From IMG/VR virus record IMGVR_UViG_3300006056_003026: DNA of 39,316 nt, one strand, 5' to 3'. The notes under the pieces were generated by a model. It saw only the letters and a program-made list of their open reading frames with translations, was not told the DNA's origin and ran no database searches. This DNA comes from a virus. Position 1 is the first letter of the stretch. Every line of letters starts with the position of its first letter. A program made the translations under genes and the position numbers. Below, piece by piece: positions 9,024 to 24,882 of the stretch.

Positions 9024-9757
9024 TGTGTACCCTCATCGTGTGCCGCCAGGCTCACCCACGTTTCCCGCTCATCATCGTGAGCAACCGTGACGAGTTTTAT
9101 GCTCGTCCGAGCGCGCCGCCGGCGTTGGTGAAACACGGTGACCGGTCAATCGTCAGTCCTCGCGATCTGGAACGTGGCGGCACGTGGATGGGTGTAGCAT
9201 CTGGCGGTTGGTTCGTTGGTCTGACGAACCAAGACGATGGCATGCACCTTCAAGGTCGTGATAGTCGAGGAAAGGTTGTCGATGCTCTCCTGAAGATGAA
9301 TGACATCGACGAAGCGGAATGGTATGTCAACGCTTGCGTCGGTTCGAACTACAATCCATTCAACGTTGTCTTCGGCACATCTCATGACATGAGGATCGGC
9401 ATGGTTCATGGTGACTTCACCATGGTCGCTCCTATCAAGCAAAGCGTCACAGTCGTCGCAAATGATTGCACTTTCAATGCAGCATACGCTCACAGGCAGG
9501 CAGCTGCACAAAGCTCTGTGATGAGAGCGTTGCGACATGAAAAGCTTGTTCCGTCGTCGTTCAAACGCACGTTGTCACTGCACGTGAACCACGATGATCC
9601 GTACCAATCTGTGTGCGTACACGATCAGGAGAAAAAGTTCGGAACGGTGTCATCTTCTGTCGTTACCGTGAGTTCATCAGGTGACATATCGTATGCATAC
9701 GCAGATGGACCAGCGTGTCAGCTAAACAGGCAGAAATCAACGTTGAGGTTCAAGTGA
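9023..9757 (+). CDS. NRDE-family / TANGO2-like protein (N-terminal Cys, Ntn-hydrolase-like)
   Basis: Starts 'MCTLIVC...LIIVSNRDEFYARPS...GGTWMGV...GLTNQ', which matches the TANGO2/NRDE signature. TGATG overlap with the upstream gene. Confidence 0.8.
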   Translation: MCTLIVCRQAHPRFPLIIVSNRDEFYARPSAPPALVKHGDRSIVSPRDLERGGTWMGVASGGWFVGLTNQDDGMHLQGRDSRGKVVDALLKMNDIDEAEWYVNACVGSNYNPFNVVFGTSHDMRIGMVHGDFTMVAPIKQSVTVVANDCTFNAAYAHRQAAAQSSVMRALRHEKLVPSSFKRTLSLHVNHDDPYQSVCVHDQEKKFGTVSSSVVTVSSSGDISYAYADGPACQLNRQKSTLRFK

Positions 9758-10016: not shown

Positions 10017-11342
10017 ATGGGTAAGCTTCGGACATCGAACTACTGGTTCAAATCCAAGAAGGGCATCGTCGTACCCGATACCGCTGACATCGTCAGGGGC
10101 ACGTTGTTCGAGGACATCAAGAACGTCTTCAACAACCACGAGGTGAAGAAGCTCGTGCGGATGACCAACGCTGTCAGCGAGGTTGCTGCTCCGTTCATCG
10201 AATCGCCCACCTTCATGAAGGGTGTCGTTGCTCTCACGAACATCGGAAAGATCCTGGTTGAGGACGTTGAGGTCTACTCGCACGGATTCTTCATGAGCGA
10301 CGAGTGGGTCGAGGTGTTCAGCAGGGAGTTCAACGGAACGTTGATGACCGTGCTGGGAAAACTGCCCTTCAAGAAGGTGGTGACGTCCGAAGAGAACACC
10401 ATCATCAAGGTCGTTGACCTGAACGGGTGTCAGGTTGGCTGGACGATCAACAGCAAGGTCAACTCCGTCGAGCACATCTACTTCCAGACCGACAAGGTTG
10501 ATGAAGCGAAGGTCGAGATCAAGCGCAGGTTGTGGGACATGTACGGTGGGAAGCCCATCGTGATGAAGAAGAACAGGACGATCGTTGCGTCCGCTGGTGG
10601 CACCGACGATCGAGTTCTGTTCGACGTTGACTCGGAGTTCATCACAGTTCCCTCCCTGATCGCGGATGCAAACATCAAGAAGCTCAAGCGAAGCCTCGAC
10701 GCTGGTGTCAACCGCAGCGTGATGCTCTTCGGATCGCCTGGTACTGGAAAGTCGACGATCGCAAGGACCATCGTGGCTGGTTTGGGACTGCGCTCGTTCA
10801 GGATCAGGGTCGAAGACGTCAGTTCGTTCGACAACTCGTCGATCGTCTCGGCTGTCGAGATCTTTCAACCTGAAGCTATCATCATCGATGATTTTGACAG
10901 GGTCGTCGGGCAAGCATCGCTGCTCGAGATGCTCACCTTCTTCCAGCAACACGTGAAGCTGGTGATCACCACCGTCAACGACAAGGAGAAGCTCGATGCC
11001 GCGATCCTCAGGCCCGAACGCATCGATGAGCTGATCCCGATCGAGGCGATGGACGAAGCGTCAGTTAGGATCATCCTCGGACAGTACGCTGACGAGTGCT
11101 TCGAGCAGGTAAAAGCGTGGCCCATCGTGTTCATCCAGGAGTACATGAAACGAAGGAAGTACATGGAACCCGATGAGATCGTTGCATCCATGAAGGAGCT
11201 CAGCGAACGAGTCGATCAGATCGGGAACAAGAAAGCGTACTCCGACAGCTGGTTGACGCTCACCGGTAAGGAACCCAAGAAAGCGCCCGTCGACGATGAT
11301 GACGATGATGACGAGGAGGACGAGGAAGAAGCCTGCCCGTGA
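10017..11342 (+). CDS. AAA+ ATPase (classic AAA clade) with an N-terminal domain of unknown function and an acidic C-terminal tail
   Basis: Walker A 'LFGSPGTGKST', Walker B 'AIIIDDFDR', sensor-1 'ITTVN', and second region of homology 'RPERIDE'. C-terminal 'DDDDDDDEEDEEE'. Confidence 0.85.
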   Translation: MGKLRTSNYWFKSKKGIVVPDTADIVRGTLFEDIKNVFNNHEVKKLVRMTNAVSEVAAPFIESPTFMKGVVALTNIGKILVEDVEVYSHGFFMSDEWVEVFSREFNGTLMTVLGKLPFKKVVTSEENTIIKVVDLNGCQVGWTINSKVNSVEHIYFQTDKVDEAKVEIKRRLWDMYGGKPIVMKKNRTIVASAGGTDDRVLFDVDSEFITVPSLIADANIKKLKRSLDAGVNRSVMLFGSPGTGKSTIARTIVAGLGLRSFRIRVEDVSSFDNSSIVSAVEIFQPEAIIIDDFDRVVGQASLLEMLTFFQQHVKLVITTVNDKEKLDAAILRPERIDELIPIEAMDEASVRIILGQYADECFEQVKAWPIVFIQEYMKRRKYMEPDEIVASMKELSERVDQIGNKKAYSDSWLTLTGKEPKKAPVDDDDDDDEEDEEEACP

Positions 11343-11387
11343 TGCATTCCTCTTGCCAACGGTTACTTACATTTGAGACCACGACGC

Positions 11388-11421
11388 CTTCACGTGAATG
11401 TCAACGGGCTGGCACGTGAAG
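11388..11421. promoter_or_regulatory. inverted repeat or paired palindromic boxes between the AAA+ and GroEL genes
   Basis: CTTCACGTG-(16 nt)-CACGTGAAG gives 9-bp arms. The left copy is the perfect palindrome TTCACGTGAA. Not CIRCE-like. Confidence 0.4.
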
Positions 11422-11715
11422 TACCTTCCCATGAAAGCGTCAATGGCCACCAGGAACATAGCAGAAGTGAAGGTCGAGCAGGGCACAACGACGGACTACG
11501 TTCTGCATACGTCGCAATCGTCGACCTTCAATGGAATCCAACACAAGGTGATCGATTTCGGCGAGCACAAGCTTGCGAAGTACATCACGACCGTGAAGGA
11601 TCCCCAGCAGAAGATGATGCTGATGGCGCTGCTGCAGGACTACATCGCTGGTAACGTTGCTATCGCTTGGAAGCGTGGTCGTCCGCTTCACATCAAGGTG
11701 ACCAAGAGCGGTTGA
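11398..11715 (+). CDS. hypothetical protein (not GroES-like)
   Basis: 105-aa ORF between the AAA+ and GroEL genes. An alternative start is ATG 11431. No GroES motifs. Confidence 0.45.
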   Translation: MSTGWHVKYLPMKASMATRNIAEVKVEQGTTTDYVLHTSQSSTFNGIQHKVIDFGEHKLAKYITTVKDPQQKMMLMALLQDYIAGNVAIAWKRGRPLHIKVTKSG

Positions 11716-11755
11716 CCTACGTGTACAGGGCTTGTTGGTGCTGTAGAATGCGGTG

Positions 11756-13399
11756 ATGAACTTTACCGATCAGGTCAACGCTCCTGCGACAACGAACGTC
11801 ATCTTTGCTGATGAGGCACGTAAGAGGCTGTACGCTGGCATCGAAATTGCTGCGAAGGCGGTTGGTTGCACTCTAGGTCCAAAGGGAAAGACCGTGCTGA
11901 TCCAGCAGAGCGGCATGGGTCCCGTCGTCACGAAGGATGGCGTGACGGTGTCGAGGTCGATCAAGCTAAAGGATCCCATCATGAGGATGGGCGCTGAGCT
12001 CGTCAGGGAGGCCGCGGCGAGGACGAACGATATCGCCGGCGACGGCACGACAACATCGACGATCCTCACGCACTCCCTCATCAAGGAAGGACTGAAGCTC
12101 CTCGGTGCTGGTTGGGATGCGAAGGACGTGTGCACCAGCTTTGAGAAGTGCGCTCGGGAGATCGATGTCAGGCTTGTTGCATCGGCGAAGAAGCTCGAGA
12201 CCAAGGAGGAGATCGCGCAGGTCGGCACCATCAGCGCGAACGGCGACACCGAGATCGGCGACCTGATCGCAGCCGCGATGGAGAAGGTCGGCAAGGATGG
12301 CATCATCACCGTCGAGGACGCAAAGGGGATGACAACCAGCCTCGGTATCGCGGAGGGCATGATGTTCGATCGTGGGTACCTTTCGCCATTCTTCGTCACC
12401 GACAACGATAAGATGCACGCCCTCTACAACGATGCGTTCGTCCTTGTCACCGACAAGAAGATCAGCAACCTCAACGATATCGTTCCGATCCTTGAACGTG
12501 TGCTCAAGGCTCAGGCGCCGCTGCTCATCATCGCTGAGGATATTGATGGTGCTGCTTTGAACGGGCTCGTGCTGAACCGCGTGAAAGCGAACCTTCCCGT
12601 TGTCGCGATCAAGGCACCCGGTTATGGGCAGCACAGGGACGAGCTTCTCAAGGACATCTGCACCCTCACGGGAGCAAACCTGATCTCCAACTCGACAGGC
12701 ATCACGCTCGAGCAAGCGCCGCTCAGCGCTCTTGGCAAGGTCAAGCGTGTCATCGTCGATGCAAAGACGACAACGTTGGTCGGCACCGGCGAGAACAAGG
12801 CTGGGATCGATTCACACGTTGCATCGTTGAGATCACAGCTGTTGGACGTCACGCTCTCCGAGGAACAGATCGTCAAGCTTCGAACAAGAATTGCCAAGCT
12901 AGCGTCCGGCGTCGCTGTCATCAAGGTCGGCGGGTTGACTGAGGTCGAGATGATCGAGCGCAAGTACCGTATCGAGGACGCGCTCAACGCAACTCGAGCT
13001 GCGGCCGAGGAGGGTATCGTTCCGGGCGGTGGGATGGCCCTCTTCAATGCCGTTAGCAGGCTTCAGAAGGAGCTAAAGGACGCTGAGCTGGTGATTGACG
13101 TGGGCACCCAGGCGGTCTTCAACGCCTGTAACGAACCACTTCGAAGGATCGCAACGAACGCAGGCGTTTCTGCAGATGTTGTCATCGAACGACTGAAGAT
13201 CGAGCATGCTGTTGGAACCGATATCGGGTACAACGCTGCCACCGGGGAATACGTTGATCTGATCGCTGCTGGCGTGATCGATCCAACCAAGGTAACGCGT
13301 GTCGCGCTGAAGCATGCTACGTCTGTTGCAATCACGTTTCTAACGCTTGATGCGGTCATCTACGAGGACGAAAATGGTAGTAGCGGCAAGGAAGAATGA
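11756..13399 (+). CDS. groEL: chaperonin GroEL / Cpn60
   Basis: Collinear with GroEL: 'TLGPKGKTVLI', 'VTKDGVTV', 'AGDGTTTSTIL', 'VPGGGMAL'. No C-terminal GGM repeat. The ORF-track first codon at 11753 is a GTG. The ATG is at 11756. Confidence 0.9.
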   Translation: MNFTDQVNAPATTNVIFADEARKRLYAGIEIAAKAVGCTLGPKGKTVLIQQSGMGPVVTKDGVTVSRSIKLKDPIMRMGAELVREAAARTNDIAGDGTTTSTILTHSLIKEGLKLLGAGWDAKDVCTSFEKCAREIDVRLVASAKKLETKEEIAQVGTISANGDTEIGDLIAAAMEKVGKDGIITVEDAKGMTTSLGIAEGMMFDRGYLSPFFVTDNDKMHALYNDAFVLVTDKKISNLNDIVPILERVLKAQAPLLIIAEDIDGAALNGLVLNRVKANLPVVAIKAPGYGQHRDELLKDICTLTGANLISNSTGITLEQAPLSALGKVKRVIVDAKTTTLVGTGENKAGIDSHVASLRSQLLDVTLSEEQIVKLRTRIAKLASGVAVIKVGGLTEVEMIERKYRIEDALNATRAAAEEGIVPGGGMALFNAVSRLQKELKDAELVIDVGTQAVFNACNEPLRRIATNAGVSADVVIERLKIEHAVGTDIGYNAATGEYVDLIAAGVIDPTKVTRVALKHATSVAITFLTLDAVIYEDENGSSGKEE

Positions 13400-16876: not shown

Positions 16877-17680
16877 TCACCAGGTGCCGACGTCGCCGTG
16901 AACCTTGAAGGTTCGAGCTTCCCTGTTCCCGCGCCTGATCAGGTCTGCGGGATCCGAGTTTCCTGAGCACTTCAACCTGACAAGCTCACGTCCGGGCATG
17001 ATGAGAGCCCACAGCTCGCGGCCGAAGCAACCCCCGCCGTCCAAGCCGATGACTTTCTCCTCGAGAAGTGGCCGATCGAGGACCGTGTGACCGAACACGA
17101 TCGTTTCCGGACCATTCCAGAAGTTCGTCCAGAACTGCCACAGTTCTGACTCAGGACGTTCCTGCACGCAACGGCTCGTCCACATCGTGGACTCGTCGTT
17201 GGTGCGGTTTCCCCACTTGTCGTACGGCCTGATATTCTGAACGTGCAGAAGGTGCTTCGGCGTCTGATCCTCGATCCTGCGGTTAGGGTAAACCCCTGCA
17301 TGGACACAGACAATGTTGTGCTCGGGCAGCCTTAGGTACAACGGCAGGCTACGGAAGTAGTTGTAGTGGGCCCTCGTCAGCTGCTGGCGGGTGGCCACAT
17401 GGGTTGGCGGGTTGACGTTGACGTGACCCTTCTTCTGCTCGATGTCATCGTAAAAGAGGTGCTTTTCCTCGTGATTGCCCAGGATGCACGAAGGCTTGCC
17501 CTGCCTCGCCTGCAATCGCATCGCGAGATCGACGCATGCACCGTTATCCGGACCTCGATCGATCAGATCACCAAGGAAAACGACGTGATCGTCGTACGTA
17601 GCGTTGCACATGTTGAGAAGCTTGACAGCCTCGTCGTGCATGCCGTGCAGGTCACCGATGATGATCGTTCTTCCGCTCAT
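16877..17680 (-). CDS. PPP-family Ser/Thr (or ApaH-like) metallophosphatase
   Basis: Motifs 'GDLHG', 'GDLIDRGP', 'GNHE', 'VHAG', 'FGHT', in canonical order. Confidence 0.85.
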   Translation of the reverse strand: MSGRTIIIGDLHGMHDEAVKLLNMCNATYDDHVVFLGDLIDRGPDNGACVDLAMRLQARQGKPSCILGNHEEKHLFYDDIEQKKGHVNVNPPTHVATRQQLTRAHYNYFRSLPLYLRLPEHNIVCVHAGVYPNRRIEDQTPKHLLHVQNIRPYDKWGNRTNDESTMWTSRCVQERPESELWQFWTNFWNGPETIVFGHTVLDRPLLEEKVIGLDGGGCFGRELWALIMPGRELVRLKCSGNSDPADLIRRGNREARTFKVHGDVGTW

Positions 17681-18841: not shown

Positions 18842-19132
18842 GTGAAGCTGAGGTATGGTGCCCTTCGTCGTATCCTGTGGCAAGCGATCAACGAGGTCGC
18901 GCCGGGACGACCGTACATCCGAAATGCCATGGCTCCGGAGACTGCTAACCGCGAGCAGCTCAAGAACATCGGCGAGGATCCTGATGAAGACGAGCTCCCA
19001 GAGCACCTAAGGGACGTGACAGTCAACCCAAAGGATTGCTATGGACCGGTGCCGCCGACGGGCGAGGAACCCTACGTTACGATGGATCCGTACGTACGTG
19101 GCGCCTCACCACTGCCAACGCCTCGTCGTTGA
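18842..19132 (+). CDS. hypothetical protein
   Basis: 96-aa ORF, convergent with the nucleotidyltransferase gene. Confidence 0.4.
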   Translation: MKLRYGALRRILWQAINEVAPGRPYIRNAMAPETANREQLKNIGEDPDEDELPEHLRDVTVNPKDCYGPVPPTGEEPYVTMDPYVRGASPLPTPRR

Positions 19133-20161
19133 TCAGTAGACCGTGCCGTCAGCCTGAACGAACTCGTGGCCCATCCTCTTCATGAGATGGTACAAGGGTG
19201 TCGTTCGGAACCCGACAGCGACATGTTCCATGGGCCAGAGCGTCGTGAGCATGACGAGATCGTCGCTGGTCATGTCACCGAGAAGGTTCTTCAGCTTGTG
19301 CTTCACAGCTTCCTTGGTGAAGAACGACTTGTCGTAGCCCTTGTATTTCTTCTCCGAAGCTGGGAGCTGCTCGACAGCGGCAACAATCGCCAACGACCAG
19401 CTGACCATCTGGTGCGATGTCTCGGGCGTGAGCTTGGTGAGGTTGTGCTTCCTCATCCACTTCAACGTTCGGTGAAGGGCTGCTGGCGATGTCCATCGCT
19501 CGATCTCAAGCTCTGAGCTGCTCATCAGAGCATCCCACTTCGGGTGCTTGATGATCTCCTTGTCGTTGAACGCAACCTTCGCGTTCGTGATATCGAAGGA
19601 GTTCAGCACCTTGTCGATGGGCTCCGACCTCTGCATCACGGCTTGGATCATCACAGGACCGCATGCGATGTCGACGTTCGCCCCCGACGGTGACGGGTTC
19701 ACATGGATCTTCTCATCACCGAACGTCTCGAGATCACGCCTCATGTCGTGCAGCGAGGTCGAAAACAGAGCCTTGGAACGATCGTCTGGGAAGAACAGGT
19801 CGATGTCGCCATGCTGCTGCTTTGCCCTCATCCCATCGTACTTTGAACCGCCTCCTGCCGCTACGTCACCGCGGAAGATTCCGAGGTACTCGGCAATGTC
19901 AGCCGTCGCCTGCTGGTACCCAGCTGGCTCGCCGGGCATGGGAGGCTTTCCCAGGTCACTGTCGACCTTGACGTATCGACCGTTCTCGACCGACTCGATC
20001 GCCCTGGCTGCGAACCCACCAGCAACGTATGCTCCGCATGCGAACGCGCAATCAAGGACACCTGAAACCATCTTGTTGTAGATCACCGGCCTTTTCATCG
20101 ACATCAACTTTGAGTTGATCGTACTGGGCTCAGCGACGTACCCATGCTCCAACTTGTGCAT
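19133..20161 (-). CDS. Pol-beta-superfamily nucleotidyltransferase with an alpha-helical C-terminal domain (CD-NTase/OAS/MNT-like). Specificity unknown.
   Basis: 'GGSKYDGMRAKQQHGDIDLFF' matches the GS-x(9-13)-DhD catalytic motif. A later acidic residue lies in 'ANVDIACG'. It is the last gene of the minus-strand operon. Confidence 0.7.
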   Translation of the reverse strand: MHKLEHGYVAEPSTINSKLMSMKRPVIYNKMVSGVLDCAFACGAYVAGGFAARAIESVENGRYVKVDSDLGKPPMPGEPAGYQQATADIAEYLGIFRGDVAAGGGSKYDGMRAKQQHGDIDLFFPDDRSKALFSTSLHDMRRDLETFGDEKIHVNPSPSGANVDIACGPVMIQAVMQRSEPIDKVLNSFDITNAKVAFNDKEIIKHPKWDALMSSSELEIERWTSPAALHRTLKWMRKHNLTKLTPETSHQMVSWSLAIVAAVEQLPASEKKYKGYDKSFFTKEAVKHKLKNLLGDMTSDDLVMLTTLWPMEHVAVGFRTTPLYHLMKRMGHEFVQADGTVY

Positions 20162-20169
20162 GCCTCGTT

Positions 20170-20592
20170 CTATAACTCAGGTTGCTCGGTGTGCACGTGA
20201 GCGATCTGCAGCCTCTTCGCTTCGTCAGCTATGAATAGGTCGAGTTGGTTGCGAAGCAAGCACAGCTGCATGATGTCAAGCTTCATCACGTGGCGAGTTC
20301 CATTCTTTGATATCGACAACGACGTATCGACTCGTCGCTCGTCATCACCACGATCGTCGGTCGTAGGGAACATGTCGAACGCACGCTCGAACGTGTAGCG
20401 CCAACATGACAACCACTCGTTCGATCCGTCCTCCTGGGTCCTTATCTTGTCGGTGACACGGTAGATCACCCTATGACGTAGTCTCGAGTGAGCTCGTCGG
20501 CCAACGTATACGCACAGGTCGCCAGGTTGTAACTCGTATGGATCAGCGACGCTTGGCACGTTTATTGCCCTTCCTGCGCTTTGGTTTTCCAC
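20170..20592 (-). CDS. PGD-motif family paralog
   Basis: 'ELQPGDLCVYVGRR'. Its 5' end overlaps the upstream gene by about 50 nt, so the true start is probably internal. Confidence 0.5.
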   Translation of the reverse strand: MENQSAGRAINVPSVADPYELQPGDLCVYVGRRAHSRLRHRVIYRVTDKIRTQEDGSNEWLSCWRYTFERAFDMFPTTDDRGDDERRVDTSLSISKNGTRHVMKLDIMQLCLLRNQLDLFIADEAKRLQIAHVHTEQPEL

Positions 20593-20968
20593 CTTCTAGA
20601 CCTGAAAGCGTTTTCTTGATAGCCTCCGTGCTGATGCCTGAGAGCCCCATGATGCTGTTCATTGAGCTGATCATCGCATCAACGGTCGGAGTCATCCTCG
20701 AGACGGCACTCATTACGTTGTCGAAAGCTTTCGACATGTTGCTTACGGCTGAGTCCATCCCGTCGTATGCATCGACCGACGGGTAGATCGACCAAACGAC
20801 AAGTGCATCGCCCTCGTTGATAGCCGCAACGATGCCAAGTCCGTCGTAGCGAGCTGTCGTCCTGTTGTACTTGCTGACGACGGATCCTGGCGATGGTTGC
20901 TTATGCATCTCGAAGTGATGCATAGGTTCAGCCTCGCTAAGCGTATCGACCTTGACCGTTGTGATCAT
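20543..20968 (-). CDS. PGD-family paralog (MIT subgroup)
   Basis: 'MITTVKVDTL...GLGIVAAINEGDALVVWSIYP'. Basic C-terminal tail KRRKGNKRAKRR. Confidence 0.55.
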   Translation of the reverse strand: MITTVKVDTLSEAEPMHHFEMHKQPSPGSVVSKYNRTTARYDGLGIVAAINEGDALVVWSIYPSVDAYDGMDSAVSNMSKAFDNVMSAVSRMTPTVDAMISSMNSIMGLSGISTEAIKKTLSGLEGGKPKRRKGNKRAKRR

Positions 20969-21330
20969 TGCAGCTTCGACACCTTCATCTCGAACTCGAT
21001 GTTATCGGGTTCCTCGTCAACAACCCATTTGACATTCAGCTGCTTGCTCTCAGACTTGATGTCGACGGCCTTGATGTTGAGCTTAAGGTCTTCGATCCTG
21101 TCAGGATGACTGGACCACAATACCGTCGCATGCTCATCGACGATCGCGACGGTAGTTCCGAACCCGCCGCCCTGCTTGAAGAGACCGTTGATCCTTCGAA
21201 CGTGATCACCGATGACTAACCTCTCGAGACGATGCGCTGTACGTCGCAGCACCTGCTGCTCGTACGTAAGTCCTTCAGCCGGCTCGTAGCCGACCTTCTC
21301 GATATCCTTGAGCTTTTCGATAGTGATCAT
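20965..21330 (-). CDS. PGD-family paralog (MIT subgroup)
   Basis: 'MITIEKLKD...VIGDHVRRINGL...GGGFGTTVAIVDEHATVLWSSHP'. Confidence 0.55.
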   Translation of the reverse strand: MITIEKLKDIEKVGYEPAEGLTYEQQVLRRTAHRLERLVIGDHVRRINGLFKQGGGFGTTVAIVDEHATVLWSSHPDRIEDLKLNIKAVDIKSESKQLNVKWVVDEEPDNIEFEMKVSKLQ

Positions 21331-21749
21331 GCTTCACCCAACGATGACGTGCCAAGCGAACCAGAACCGTACGTGTGATCCATGTAAAAAACCAGACCCG
21401 ATGGCATCGACATGGGCTGGATGCTCACGAGCTGCTGCGCAACGAGGTAATTGGATTGCTGCCTGACCACGGGAAACACAAAACTCTTGAGAGGATCGTT
21501 GCTGTGGATCGGTTCTATCGACCACAGGACGGTGACGTGCTCATCGACGATGGCAACGGCCATCCCGTAACCGCCGTGCCTCAAGCCAACGTCCTTGAGC
21601 TTGACGTGGCTACCGATGACAAGGTTGTTACGTTGAGCGTAGATCTTGATCAGGGCAGCTTTGACGCACTCGGTGTACGACCTGTCTGACGACTCCTCGA
21701 ATGGATCGTCAGCGAGAAGAACGTCCTCTATCCTTTCGACGGTTATCAT
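21327..21749 (-). CDS. PGD-family paralog (MIT subgroup)
   Basis: 'MITVERIEDV...VIGSHVKLKDV...GGYGMAVAIVDEHVTVLWSIEP'. Close paralog of 20965..21330. Confidence 0.55.
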   Translation of the reverse strand: MITVERIEDVLLADDPFEESSDRSYTECVKAALIKIYAQRNNLVIGSHVKLKDVGLRHGGYGMAVAIVDEHVTVLWSIEPIHSNDPLKSFVFPVVRQQSNYLVAQQLVSIQPMSMPSGLVFYMDHTYGSGSLGTSSLGEA

Positions 21750-22033
21750 GCGCCCATCGAATCCTTCATCAAACGCAGGTACGCGCGGTCCTCTTCAACT
21801 TGAATGTCACGGATCAACCTCTCCTGCAGAGTGAGTGGACTTGGAGCTAGCTCCCAAAGCACGGTGACATCTGTTCCCATCACCTCGTCGTCGAAATCAA
21901 CGCTGATCGAGATGATTGTTCCAACCTGATCCTCACGTGAACAGAACGACACGATGCAACCCGGAGCTGCAGCATGATTGCTAGCGCAACGATGAACGAT
22001 GTCCTCTGCTCCGTGCGTACGAATGCAGCTCAC
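21746..22033 (-). CDS. PGD-family paralog (divergent)
   Basis: 'VGTIISISVDFDDEVMGTDVTVLWELAP'. Confidence 0.5.
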   Translation of the reverse strand: MSCIRTHGAEDIVHRCASNHAAAPGCIVSFCSREDQVGTIISISVDFDDEVMGTDVTVLWELAPSPLTLQERLIRDIQVEEDRAYLRLMKDSMGA

Positions 22034-22302
22034 GTGCCCCCAAGCGCAGGCACGAGCTTTCCGACCATCGTCAGAGCCTCGCGATACAGCGATGAAACAG
22101 GATCATCTGATTGCGTCGCTTGGTACGCTCTTGCGATGAGGTTAGGCTCTTGCGTCCAGACGACGATCGAACGTGAACCGTTCGAACCGATGAAGATGCC
22201 GAGTGAACTGTCATCGTGCACGTGCATGATCATGTCACCAGGGATGGGTTCTGCATCGTTCTCCGGTCCTATGAACCTTGTCTCGATCTCCTCGATCACC
22301 AT
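22030..22302 (-). CDS. PGD-motif family paralog
   Basis: 'PIPGDMIMHVHDDSSLGIFIG...SIVVWTQEP'. Confidence 0.5.
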   Translation of the reverse strand: MVIEEIETRFIGPENDAEPIPGDMIMHVHDDSSLGIFIGSNGSRSIVVWTQEPNLIARAYQATQSDDPVSSLYREALTMVGKLVPALGGT

Positions 22303-22832
22303 CGATTCTCGACCTCGTACTGAGCATCGTGAACGTAAGCATTCATCATGTCGATCGTGAATCGAGACGTGATCGTCTTCTTCGACCCCGGCGGGATGCA
22401 GACGATGACCAGCTCAGAAACATCACGCATCGGTGTTTCACCGGAGAAACCTGAGAAGCTATCCCTGAAGCAACGGGTGAACTTGAAGTCCACGATCGGC
22501 GAACCCGTGAAGATCAGATCGTTGGGATCGATCTTGTCGCTGGCAACGAGGTTTGCTATCGACTTCAACGATTCGCTCATCGATTGACCGTTGTAGTTCA
22601 GCGCAGCACTTTGGGCCAAGCCTTTACGAGCTCTCTGCGCTTGAATGAGACGATCGATCAGTCCTGGATCCGGGTGCTTCGACCAGAGGACCATCACATC
22701 GACGTTGTTAACGCCGACGACGAACCCTCGCGAAGCCTGATCGAGATGGTGCTTGACCCACTCGCCGGGTTTGATGATAGTTGAGGCCCAGTTGACGTTC
22801 AGAACATCAGACAGGGCTAGCTCCTGAAGCAT
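22296..22832 (-). CDS. PGD-family paralog (longer)
   Basis: 'IKPGEWVKHHL...GFVVGVNNVDVMVLWSKHP'. Confidence 0.5.
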   Translation of the reverse strand: MLQELALSDVLNVNWASTIIKPGEWVKHHLDQASRGFVVGVNNVDVMVLWSKHPDPGLIDRLIQAQRARKGLAQSAALNYNGQSMSESLKSIANLVASDKIDPNDLIFTGSPIVDFKFTRCFRDSFSGFSGETPMRDVSELVIVCIPPGSKKTITSRFTIDMMNAYVHDAQYEVENRW

Positions 22833-22865
22833 AGAAAGATCCTAACCCCAACTCATGAGCACGGA

Positions 22866-23210
22866 TTACCGGTTGAATCGACTGTGCTTGAATCGAAGCT
22901 TTCCCTCAACTGTCATCATGACCCAAACATCAGTTTGTCTTGGATTTCGCATGGGTTCCTTGAGGAGAACTTTCCTGTATCGAGCGACGATGAACACCAG
23001 TTCGTTGATAAGCCTGACGTCGAAGTAAAATCCATTTGACACGATCTCCTGGATGAACCGTGAGCTAAACGTTTCAGCATCGGGCGTCGACGGGACGCAA
23101 ACTTGACAGCAATTCGAGTGGACAAAAACAGCATCACCCGGTACGATCGTCGCGTACCACGGGTGATTGCCGTCAACCTGCCAGACCTTCAATCTACTTC
23201 TCGTTTTCAT
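22866..23210 (-). CDS. PGD-motif family paralog
   Basis: 'TIVPGDAVFVHSNC'. Confidence 0.5.
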   Translation of the reverse strand: MKTRSRLKVWQVDGNHPWYATIVPGDAVFVHSNCCQVCVPSTPDAETFSSRFIQEIVSNGFYFDVRLINELVFIVARYRKVLLKEPMRNPRQTDVWVMMTVEGKLRFKHSRFNR

Positions 23211-23511
23211 CTAGAAGGACGATGAACCCGACCTCGCCCCTGTCTCGACGACGTTCCCTGAACCTCGACATGACCTTTCCGGGCTCCGAAATTTCGATGT
23301 CTGCACGAAGTTGATCGACAACCTCGAGCACATCCGCCAGCTCATCGATCTCAGCTTCGCTGCCGTCGATTGTCTCCGACATCTCCTTCGCTTCCTCGAG
23401 AAGCTTCTTCTTCAGAAGCTGCCAACGCTCAAGAGGTTGAGCCTGACGTGTTCGTAGTGACGCACCGTTTGCAGCTGCGATCTCCGGAATACGATCCCTG
23501 ATAAGCTTCAT
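23194..23511 (-). CDS. all-alpha NTP pyrophosphohydrolase (MazG/HisE-like), tentative
   Basis: N-terminal 'MKLIRDRIPEIAAANG' matches the 'KLVRDKIPEI' signature of MazG-like house-cleaning NTP-PPases. Acidic EExxE-type helices follow. Confidence 0.5.
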   Translation of the reverse strand: MKLIRDRIPEIAAANGASLRTRQAQPLERWQLLKKKLLEEAKEMSETIDGSEAEIDELADVLEVVDQLRADIEISEPGKVMSRFRERRRDRGEVGFIVLLDENEK

Positions 23512-23939
23512 GTTTTCTCCATCATCCCATAACTCAACGATTCAAGCGTAGCGTATCCCATCAACGTTCCATCCTCGAATTCACCTGAGGCGAACAGAAG
23601 GCCTCGAAGGTGACTCGTGGCGCTCGACCAGATGACGGTGACCGGCAAGTTGACGTACCTTTCCTCGTTCGTGCCGTCGAACGCGTACGAGGCATCGATG
23701 TCGATCTCACGCATCATGGTTTTAGCGACCATGACACGCATGTTGCGCTTCGGAACGATGATCGTGCCTGGCGGGTACAACGAACGCTTCGTCATGTTCG
23801 AGTACGCCTCGAGGAACAGCGCCTGCACGTCATAGGGTACGATGAGCTTCAGCTCCTTCCAGAGCAACCTACGTTCCTTGACGCTCAGCGGTTCGAAGAG
23901 GTCAGCGATGAACTCGGCCGTCTGCTTCGGGGTCATCAC
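23508..23939 (-). CDS. PGT-variant family paralog
   Basis: 'YPPGTIIVPKRNMRVMVAK...LPVTVIWSS'. Confidence 0.5.
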   Translation of the reverse strand: MMTPKQTAEFIADLFEPLSVKERRLLWKELKLIVPYDVQALFLEAYSNMTKRSLYPPGTIIVPKRNMRVMVAKTMMREIDIDASYAFDGTNEERYVNLPVTVIWSSATSHLRGLLFASGEFEDGTLMGYATLESLSYGMMEKT

Positions 23940-24622
23940 GTGAAGTCAACCTCCGGGAGCTCCCACTGTGCCCACTTCACGCTCCCGTAGCTCGTGATCA
24001 CACCGTTGTAACAACGGTCATCGACCGTGACCTTGAACTTTGCGACCTCCTCTAGACGCACATCCCTGAGCGCAGCGTACGGGGAATCGTGCTTGCTCGA
24101 TTCGAACCATGACCTGAGGCGTACCTCCATCGCAAGGTACAGGTAGGATCGCACCTTCTCGAGGCGTCGGGACCATTTCCTTGACATCCTGTAAAGTCGA
24201 TGGAACTCAGCTGTTTGCTCATCCGTCAGCGTGTAGAACGTTTTCTGAGGGTTTCTCATCCCCCAGTCGATGAAGTACTGCAGGTTGTGAGAGCTTCGTA
24301 GCGAGCCATCCTGGATGATAGCATACTGATCGTGATTGTCGCTATCGTCCTTCAGCATGCAGAACTCGTTCCCGGCTTCCTTCGATGCATCCTCGATCGC
24401 ATGGACGTACGACCAGAACGCCTCGCTGCGTTTCTTTGAATCGAACCTGACATCGACGAACAGCGTTTCGACCCGCCTCCAGTCGATGAGCTTTTTCATG
24501 ATACGTGCGGTTCGTTTCTTGTGCGACCGCACGTTGCAGTTTTGATATGCATTGAGCCGGGTTTCGTACGCTCGTGAAGCCGCATGCTCGAGGTACAACG
24601 GTTCAAAATCGTCGAGGTTCAT
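23936..24622 (-). CDS. hypothetical protein
   Basis: 228-aa ORF, coupled by ATGA overlaps on both sides. Confidence 0.5.
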   Translation of the reverse strand: MNLDDFEPLYLEHAASRAYETRLNAYQNCNVRSHKKRTARIMKKLIDWRRVETLFVDVRFDSKKRSEAFWSYVHAIEDASKEAGNEFCMLKDDSDNHDQYAIIQDGSLRSSHNLQYFIDWGMRNPQKTFYTLTDEQTAEFHRLYRMSRKWSRRLEKVRSYLYLAMEVRLRSWFESSKHDSPYAALRDVRLEEVAKFKVTVDDRCYNGVITSYGSVKWAQWELPEVDFT

Positions 24623-24840
24623 TGCACGGTCCGGGATGCGATGATGCGGTCAGCTAGCTCGAAGACGCCTTCCATCATATCCTCTGTCGACCGTAACACC
24701 TTGAGCTCGTTCCTTGCACAATCGCTGATGTCACGTTTCTCAACGATGTTGATCAACGTGCTTGACATGTCCGGCGCAACGCGGATCGCCCAGCAGAGGT
24801 ATGTCAACATCGACTTTTCATCATCGGAGAGCATATGCAC
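24619..24840 (-). CDS. hypothetical small protein
   Basis: 73 aa. First gene downstream of MVP after a hairpin. Confidence 0.45.
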   Translation of the reverse strand: MHMLSDDEKSMLTYLCWAIRVAPDMSSTLINIVEKRDISDCARNELKVLRSTEDMMEGVFELADRIIASRTVQ

Positions 24841-24851
24841 CCAACGACAAA

Positions 24852-24882
24852 TGCCCGGGCAGCGGTTTTCACCGCCCGGGCA
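24852..24882 (-). terminator. hairpin between MVP and the downstream operon (candidate attenuator or partial terminator)
   Basis: t-GCCCGGGC-(13 nt loop)-GCCCGGGC-a gives a 9-bp GC-rich stem. On the minus-strand transcript it is followed by a modest U-rich run (AUUUGUCGUU). Confidence 0.35.

Follow-up and report, generated by a model that had tools for sequence, protein, structure and literature searches.

A short Gad2-like nucleotidyltransferase at the end of a probable accessory-gene cassette in an uncultivated huge phage

Results

A block of 13 genes downstream of a vault-protein homologue

We analyzed a 39,316-nucleotide stretch of viral DNA (IMG/VR record IMGVR_UViG_3300006056_003026, hereafter the window) and, within it, a block of minus-strand genes that ends in a gene for a Pol-beta-superfamily nucleotidyltransferase (NTase). 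The block sits downstream of a full-length homologue of the vault protein MVP (895 aa, 24934-27621, minus strand). As listed in Table 1, the open reading frame (ORF) map holds 13 minus-strand ORFs running from 24840 to 19133, with starts and stops that overlap or lie a few bases apart, in agreement with an earlier description made from the sequence alone (the original prediction), which had placed 13 genes here after a post-MVP hairpin. A strict terminator scan made no call at this hairpin (~24853-24881). The contig itself corresponds to a 40-kb metagenome assembly. Twelve of the 13 genes are kept, in unchanged order, on two related contigs of 247 kb (L018) and 343 kb (L019). Compared with its L019 counterpart, the NTase is 94% identical, with 60 synonymous codon differences against 20 amino-acid changes, and the MazG-type protein encoded by gene 4 is 96% identical, with 25 synonymous differences against 4 amino-acid changes; the small genes of the block diverge more, at 58-87% identity. 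Because synonymous differences far outnumber amino-acid changes in both enzymes, both appear to be under purifying selection, and this, together with the retention of the block in relatives, indicates that the 13 genes are real and not chance ORFs. Overall, the block is most likely a fast-evolving accessory-gene cassette of an uncultivated huge phage with relatives of at least 343 kb.

Directly after the NTase stop there is an apparent hotspot of gene replacement, in which a mobile endonuclease may take part. In L018 and L019 this position is occupied by a gene of 238-254 aa (12232-12996, minus strand) with weak Tn7_TnsA-like_N/DUF7487 matches, and in the window by an unrelated 96-aa gene (18842-19132) that is convergent to the NTase. 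The latter was ruled out as a remnant of the TnsA-like gene of L019 because the two have no similarity.

The catalytic residues of the NTase

The last gene of the block (gene 13) had been proposed to encode an NTase with a GS...DxD motif and a helical C-terminal domain. The protein is indeed a Pol-beta-superfamily NTase, whose C-terminal part, from residue 228 to the end (~110 aa), is helical. Across 97 aligned sequences D119, D121, F189, D190, and R231 never vary, and conservation reaches at least 90% at G48, G49, F124, Q173, N193, and K234. The DxD half of the proposed motif (D119 and D121) thus stands. Its glycine half does not: the GGS (residues 103-105, within 'GGSKYDGMRAKQQ') lies inside a lineage-specific insertion, residues ~61-117, that is missing from the six nearest non-identical homologues, and residues 93-117 of the AlphaFold 2 (AF2) model have a predicted local distance difference test score (pLDDT) below 50. 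The nearest non-identical homologues are 282-292 aa long and 25-33% identical to the window protein. The GGS was therefore rejected as the catalytic motif. Conservation points to V-A-G48-G49-F-A-R as the glycine motif; in the AF2 model it runs from the end of strand 1 into the following helix, and D119-x-D121 lies on the next core strand. The third catalytic acidic residue, which the original prediction had suggested looking for, is likely D190.

The NTase belongs to a divergent branch of the Gad2 family

Direct searches with the NTase of Pfam, NCBIfam, PADLOC, and PDB sequences gave nothing useful, and a search of PHROGs returned only a weak 'nucleotidyltransferase' match (E 0.0095). Precomputed Pfam annotation assigns PF26128 'Gad2' faintly to the window NTase and without that qualification (E ≤ 1e-5) to its homologues P0003-P0006. 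Gad2 is the second anti-Gabija protein described from SPbeta-like phages: SPbetaL7 without Gad2 becomes Gabija-sensitive, a Brevibacillus homologue inhibits Gabija, and AlphaFold predicts an NTase domain in Gad2, making it a putative enzyme (bioRxiv 10.1101/2023.05.01.538930). We therefore compared the 97-sequence family profile with the verified Brevibacillus Gad2 sequence (Supplementary Table 10 of bioRxiv 10.1101/2023.05.01.538930), and the two were matched by hhalign with 96.4% probability (E 1.2e-9, 117 columns) and by hmmsearch with 31.8 bits (E 4.5e-12). The aligned region of Gad2 (residues 41-162) is the catalytic core only, beginning at the DxD strand and ending with the R..K helix. 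Run against 177,635 PDB sequences, the family profile matched no NTase, which argues that the match to Gad2 is specific and does not reflect generic Pol-beta similarity.

The window NTase and Gad2 (Bacillus phage SPbetaL7; Brevibacillus laterosporus prophage) are both phage-encoded predicted enzymes with a homologous NTase core, comprising an AGG motif, a D-x-D-h-F strand, an FD(F/I)T strand, and an R..K(Y/W) helix. They differ in that Gad2 is 394-400 aa long and has an extra C-terminal half of ~230 aa, whereas the window NTase has no such half, and in the spacing between the GG and DxD motifs, which is 12 residues (the canonical value) in Gad2, 20-60 in most of the present subfamily, and 69 in the window NTase. 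On the grounds of profile similarity, we conclude that the window NTase is a member of a divergent, shorter subfamily of the Gad2 family already defined in Pfam.

A profile search of 1.84 billion cluster representatives recovered 693 relatives of the NTase at E ≤ 1e-3. At 50% identity the subfamily comprises ~690 clusters, and metagenomic or viral contigs, from uncultivated and often huge phages, are the only places where it was seen. No relatives were found by tblastn in 50,697 phage records, either with the window NTase or with P0029, the family member closest to Gad2, and none in 185,579 reference genomes; the search of reference genomes and of viral and metagenome contigs used a 7-sequence alignment of the family. 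Ten longer family members scanned for domain fusions contained no Pfam domains.

The predicted fold is of the polymerase type

In structural comparisons, the best matches of the NTase model were CCA-adding and A-adding enzymes, with template modeling scores (TM-scores) of only 0.33-0.46, and the matches in BFVD were uncharacterized viral proteins mixed with viral CCA-adding enzymes. For other NTases, the comparison gave figures of 7.8 for TENT5B, 5.0 for DncV and OAS2, 4.5 for MenT1, 4.2 for ANT(2''), and 4.1 for OAS1 and CdnE. The model has the head-plus-neck architecture of class II enzymes: its core, made up of the GG helix, the DxD strand, and the FD strand, and its helical neck are predicted to resemble those of class II tRNA-nucleotidyltransferases and poly(A) polymerases. 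The resemblance has its limits. There is no sequence-profile match to class II tRNA NTases or bacterial poly(A) polymerase (PolyA_pol; PDB 3h37, 4wby, 3aql, 1miv), whose body and tail domains would find no room in 342 aa. Manual inspection of the conserved columns of the window NTase family revealed neither the RRD nor the EDxxR motif of class II, the columns containing 'SFDIxNA' and 'P.T..R..KW' instead, and an insertion parts the GG and DxD of the window NTase.

The original prediction had considered cGAS/DncV-like or OAS-like enzymes and minimal NTases of toxin-antitoxin or abortive-infection modules. Profiles for cyclases of the cyclic oligonucleotide-based antiphage signaling system (CBASS) and other CD-NTases did not match (no PADLOC-DB family at E ≤ 0.1 with the window NTase or P0003, and no Pfam match), and the fold of the model is not closest to the cGAS/DncV/OAS type; with CD-NTases (DncV, CdnE, cGAS) and OAS, the NTase has in common only the generic Pol-beta palm, the GG/GS motif, and three acidic residues. 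The minimal fold of MenT, AbiEii, and MNT enzymes, with a cognate antitoxin or HEPN neighbor, was not found either. In essence, the predicted structure is that of a polymerase-type NTase with no signaling-NTase features, the outcome that the original prediction itself had named as speaking against its proposal.

The MazG-type protein is genuine but is not a conserved partner of the NTase

Gene 4 had been called MazG-like, and this call holds. The 105-aa protein has 116 homologues of ~100-110 aa, many of which go by the name of house-cleaning noncanonical NTP pyrophosphatase or nucleoside triphosphate pyrophosphohydrolase; PF01503, PF03819, or PF12643 is likewise present in many. The EExxE metal-binding motif, whose inspection had been recommended, is intact: E39, E40, and E43, together with E57 and D60 of an ExxD motif, show at least 99% conservation in an alignment of 110 sequences. 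The protein thus resembles stand-alone, all-alpha MazG NTP pyrophosphohydrolases in length, in its KLxRDxIPEI N terminus, and in its EExxE...ExxD arrangement, and it differs from typical MazG proteins in that its own Pfam scores fall below the gathering thresholds (MazG E 0.006; PRA-PH 0.1).

To place the NTase in context, we gathered 46 further loci by exact-protein look-ups and pattern scans and searched their six-frame ORFs with profiles built for this analysis. A MazG-like gene stands beside the NTase only in the window contig and its 94%-identical relatives L018-L020, and MazG-like genes are absent from all 38 NTase loci outside this near-identical clade. In L007, where the MVP is 64% identical and the full interval from MVP to NTase is visible, that interval contains small genes and a Peptidase_M24 gene and no MazG. 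Conversely, in L003 the MVP-like genes are followed directly by a MazG homologue and paralogs of the small block genes described below, with no NTase within 5.6 kb downstream. The absence of MazG from the 38 other NTase loci and its presence in L003 without an NTase indicate that the pairing of the two is not conserved. The original prediction had read this pair as the synthesis and clearance of a nucleotide signal. MazG enzymes act on nucleoside triphosphates, cleaving between the alpha and beta phosphates (NTP -> NMP + PPi), and cyclic nucleotide signals would therefore not be a substrate; on both counts this reading is unsupported. The MazG-type protein most likely edits or sanitizes the nucleotide pool independently of the NTase. 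Jumbo phages carry scattered MazG-like triphosphatases, which are thought to deplete unmodified NTPs (PMC7824862).

RNA-repair genes accompany the NTase in one lineage

Consistent with the statement in the original prediction that no canonical CBASS effector is adjacent, searches of Pfam and PADLOC revealed no effector domains beside the NTase. In the window lineage, a NinI-type metallophosphoesterase lies 1.5-2 kb from the NTase. A second syntenic lineage, represented by 8 loci, has the order RNA ligase, metallophosphoesterase, N6/N4 methylase(s), NTase and, further on, HNH; PNKP is present in the retrieved flank of 4 of these 8 loci, ~4-6 kb from the NTase in L006 and L010. The metallophosphoesterase was considered as the second member of a conserved two-gene module with the NTase, and this was reduced to a lead because only two lineages have the arrangement and their phosphoesterases belong to different subfamilies (no BLAST match).

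The setting of the second lineage resembles that of RlaP (PF10127), a Pol-beta NTase that adjoins RNA ligase and PNKP in phages and belongs to a different Pfam family from the Gad2-like NTase. L006 carries both an RlaP NTase and a Gad2-like NTase, confirming that these are different protein families and possibly not redundant. RlaP adds one or two nucleoside monophosphates (NMPs) onto damaged RNA 3' ends (PMC12776372), and jumbo phages use Pol-beta NTases, such as RlaP and CCA-adding enzymes, beside ligases to restore RNA ends (PMC7824862).

About 28 other NTase loci have no RNA ligase, PNKP, or phosphoesterase neighbors. One group among them has, at some kb from the NTase, genes for a lysozyme, a dCMP deaminase, and a cREC domain protein. 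In L011, from a different phage lineage, a cREC_REC protein (cyclic-phosphate processing receiver, PF20274, 3e-11; 16935-17333, plus strand) and a dCMP deaminase are encoded ~6 kb away from the NTase.

Table 1. Features of the 13-gene block and its surroundings in the window
Feature	Coordinates	Strand	Description
GC-rich hairpin	24853..24881 (approx.)	-	Between MVP stop and gene 1; GCCCGGGC palindromic stem, then ATTTGTCGTT; read directly from the sequence
Gene 1	24619..24840	-	73 aa; ORF; 82% identical in L019
Gene 2	23936..24622	-	228 aa; ORF; 87% identical in L019
Gene 3	23508..23939	-	143 aa; marginal PG..VLW member (PPGT...VTVIWSS); 80% identical in L019
Gene 4, MazG-type NTP pyrophosphohydrolase	23194..23511	-	105 aa, stand-alone all-alpha; KLIRDRIPEI, EEAKE (39-43), ELAD (57-60)
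Gene 5	22866..23210	-	114 aa by ORF; gene callers use a later ATG (108 aa)
Gene 6	22296..22832	-	178 aa; N-terminal PG..VLW domain and unique C-terminal extension; hidden Markov model iteration
Gene 7	22030..22302	-	90 aa; PG..VLW paralog; BLAST and hidden Markov model
Gene 8	21746..22033	-	95 aa; PG..VLW paralog; fastest-evolving gene of the block, 58% identical in L019
Gene 9	21327..21749	-	140 aa, 'MIT'; PG..VLW domain and 42-aa Gp23-like tail
Gene 10	20965..21330	-	121 aa, 'MIT'; paralog, 34% identical to gene 9
Gene 11	20543..20968	-	141 aa, 'MIT'; paralog domain and basic C-terminal tail
Gene 12	20170..20592	-	140 aa by ORF, 129 aa by gene callers; not a demonstrable paralog
Gene 13, Gad2-family (PF26128) Pol-beta-superfamily NTase	19133..20161	-	342 aa; last gene of the block
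NinI/lambda-type metallophosphoesterase	16877..17680	-	267 aa; Pfam Metallophos 2.2e-16; phrog_246 1.3e-35; 1.5 kb downstream of the NTase; candidate functional neighbor

Six small block proteins share a PG..VLW domain

Nine of the block genes had been described as PGD/PGT paralogs. Iterated searches with hidden Markov models (HMMs) joined six of them, genes 6-11, through a shared unit of ~55 aa with the motif PG-x-V...G-x-G...V-(V/L)-W-(S/T)-x-x-P (PG..VLW), so that a smaller family than the nine is linked statistically. BLAST links only gene 10 with gene 9 and gene 7 with gene 6 (9e-6). Gene 3 is marginal to the family (HMM E 0.03-0.07 in a 62-protein database), and genes 5 and 12 were not detected by the iterated profiles, having only the PGD tripeptide in common with it. 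The three members singled out as very similar (genes 9-11) do all begin with 'MIT'; their similarity was overstated, given the modest identity of genes 9 and 10 and the linkage of gene 11 by profile only. The domain is found also in the relatives L002, L003, and L007, and the AF2 model of one member is a short beta-rich domain of moderate confidence. Gene 10 has no counterpart in L018 and L019, which hold 12 genes and not 13, showing that copies in the array are gained or lost between close relatives. Overall, the PG..VLW proteins are fast-evolving accessory proteins in six ~55-aa copies, some with differing C-terminal tails.

The tail of gene 9 (residues 90-131, VAQQLVSIQPMSMPSGLVFYMDHTYGSGS) matches a conserved N-terminal segment of the T4-type major capsid protein Gp23, with a score above the gathering threshold for Pfam PF07068 (E 1.4e-7, 31.7 bits) and a further match to phrog_138. 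The fusion of paralog domain and tail is kept in three other metagenomic proteins (P0269-P0271, 44-67% identical), and the tail modeled alone is predicted to be disordered. This tail could mimic a capsid protein or direct its bearer to the capsid.

Among the remaining block genes, gene 1 had no Pfam or PHROG match and gene 2 had none in Pfam, PHROG, NCBIfam, or PADLOC. L002 has a homologue of gene 12 (44% identical), placed two genes upstream of its NTase.

Other genes of the window

The MVP homologue upstream of the block matches MVP_shoulder (3.6e-28), Vault_3, and Vault; its L019 counterpart is 98% identical, ORFs of 462-735-kb 'uncultured phage' records reach 42-44% identity, and a search of the literature for MVP in huge phages found nothing useful. 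On the plus strand, 8106-9757 encodes an adjacent ADP-ribosylglycohydrolase (PF03747, 6.4e-33) and TANGO2-family protein (5.4e-31), and the former could reverse a host defense based on ADP-ribosylation. Cellular-type genes for protein folding and translation, namely an AAA ATPase, a Cpn60/GroEL-like chaperonin (548 aa), and an eIF-1a-like small protein, lie at 10017-13399 (plus strand) and ~15.9 kb, and this set is syntenic in L002 and L019. A second, separate family of larger paralogs (231-365 aa) occupies 32883-37551 on the minus strand (genes 32883, 33575, 34369, 35454, and 36787; pairwise BLAST E 1e-4 to 2e-33), and genes 36161 and 37847 form another paralog pair (3e-15).

Discussion

The explanation that we prefer, at a probability of roughly 0.55, is that gene 13 encodes a Gad2-family, class-II-like, template-independent 3'-end nucleotidyltransferase that serves in repair or counter-defense and is carried in a fast-evolving accessory cassette. 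A counter-defense role, one of the options raised in the original prediction, is made plausible by the closest characterized relative, the anti-Gabija protein Gad2. The present results establish the reality of the genes, the family and fold class of the NTase, its conserved residues, and the lack of a conserved MazG partnership; from the fold and the gene neighborhoods, we infer the substrate and the biological role. In this mechanism, D119, D121, and D190 would bind two metal ions, and the enzyme would move NMPs from NTPs, without a template, onto the 3' end of a nucleic acid, most likely RNA or tRNA and possibly DNA. Such additions would repair or mask ends that are made or sensed by host defenses, and the enzyme would not be a cyclic-oligonucleotide synthase.

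Several findings weigh against this explanation. The RNA-ligase/PNKP neighborhood occurs in one lineage, which is not that of the window, and ~28 further loci have no such neighbors. The match of the window NTase itself to PF26128 is faint, no significant similarity to Gad2 emerges pairwise (E 6.7), the ~230-aa C-terminal half of Gad2 is missing, and 69 residues in place of 12 separate the GG and DxD motifs. Pfam PolyA_pol (PF01743) has no match at E ≤ 10 in 7 members of the NTase family, and the base-selecting EDxxR motif of class II enzymes was not seen by eye. Further, the mechanism of Gad2 was still listed as unknown in 2026 (PMC12904381), so that homology to Gad2 yields no substrate.

A narrower and distinctly tentative alternative is that the NTase is a functional equivalent of Gad2, i.e. 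a dedicated enzymatic inhibitor of host Gabija (GajAB), with modification of the DNA ends or nucleotide cues sensed by Gabija as one conceivable mode of action. The specific profile-level homology to the verified anti-Gabija protein, the precomputed PF26128 matches, the prediction that Gad2 is itself an NTase enzyme (bioRxiv 10.1101/2023.05.01.538930), and the location of the gene in a variable accessory region, as is typical of anti-defense loci, all point in this direction. However, only ~120 residues of the catalytic core can be aligned, the half of Gad2 beyond them having no equivalent here, and the subfamily is very divergent, with no detectable pairwise similarity and an insertion between its motifs; moreover, no relative was found in the 185,579 genomes or in cultured phages. 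That the protein is instead a genuine tRNA nucleotidyltransferase (CCA- or A-adding), which would restore tRNA 3' ends in support of the translation-related genes of the phage, seems improbable to us. The best structural matches are indeed enzymes of this kind, CCA-adding enzymes are known from jumbo phages (PMC7824862), eIF-1a-like and Cpn60 genes lie nearby, and Peptidase_M24 adjoins the NTase in L002 and L007. Nevertheless, the TM-scores are low, PolyA_pol finds no match, the templating motif EDxxR is unrecognizable, the protein is shorter than CCA enzymes and without the body and tail domains that hold the tRNA, and the window contains no tRNA genes.

The two readings raised at the outset fare considerably worse. 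A cGAS/DncV- or OAS-like signaling NTase, whose product or that of the host would be cleared by the co-operonic MazG, shares with the window protein the generic Pol-beta features described above, and this model is already largely refuted by the profile searches, the fold, and the absence of a conserved MazG partner; we regard it as highly unlikely. Membership in the Pol-beta superfamily would also suit a toxin-type minimal NTase (MenT/AbiEii/MNT-like) of a phage-borne toxin-antitoxin or abortive-infection module, a reading that we consider scarcely credible given that neither the minimal fold nor an antitoxin or HEPN neighbor was found.

Returning to the Gad2-family 3'-end nucleotidyltransferase, a broader and speculative extension is that short Gad2-like NTases constitute a distinct class of nucleic-acid end-modifying counter-defense enzymes that work with metallophosphoesterase, PNKP, and RNA ligase. 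Beyond the NTase, the locus is an ordinary accessory-gene cassette, and both the signaling role and the NTase-MazG partnership should be dropped. What the analysis does reveal is that huge phages carry a large branch of short Gad2-like enzymes known purely from metagenomes. Gad2 is among the few anti-defense proteins predicted to act enzymatically, and the class-II-like fold, together with the RNA-repair neighbors in one lineage, provides a testable hypothesis for the family, namely 3'-end nucleotide addition. The characterization of one short Gad2-like NTase might reveal the mechanism of Gad2, one possibility being that nucleotides added to the 3' ends that are recognized would blind Gabija and other end-sensing defenses.

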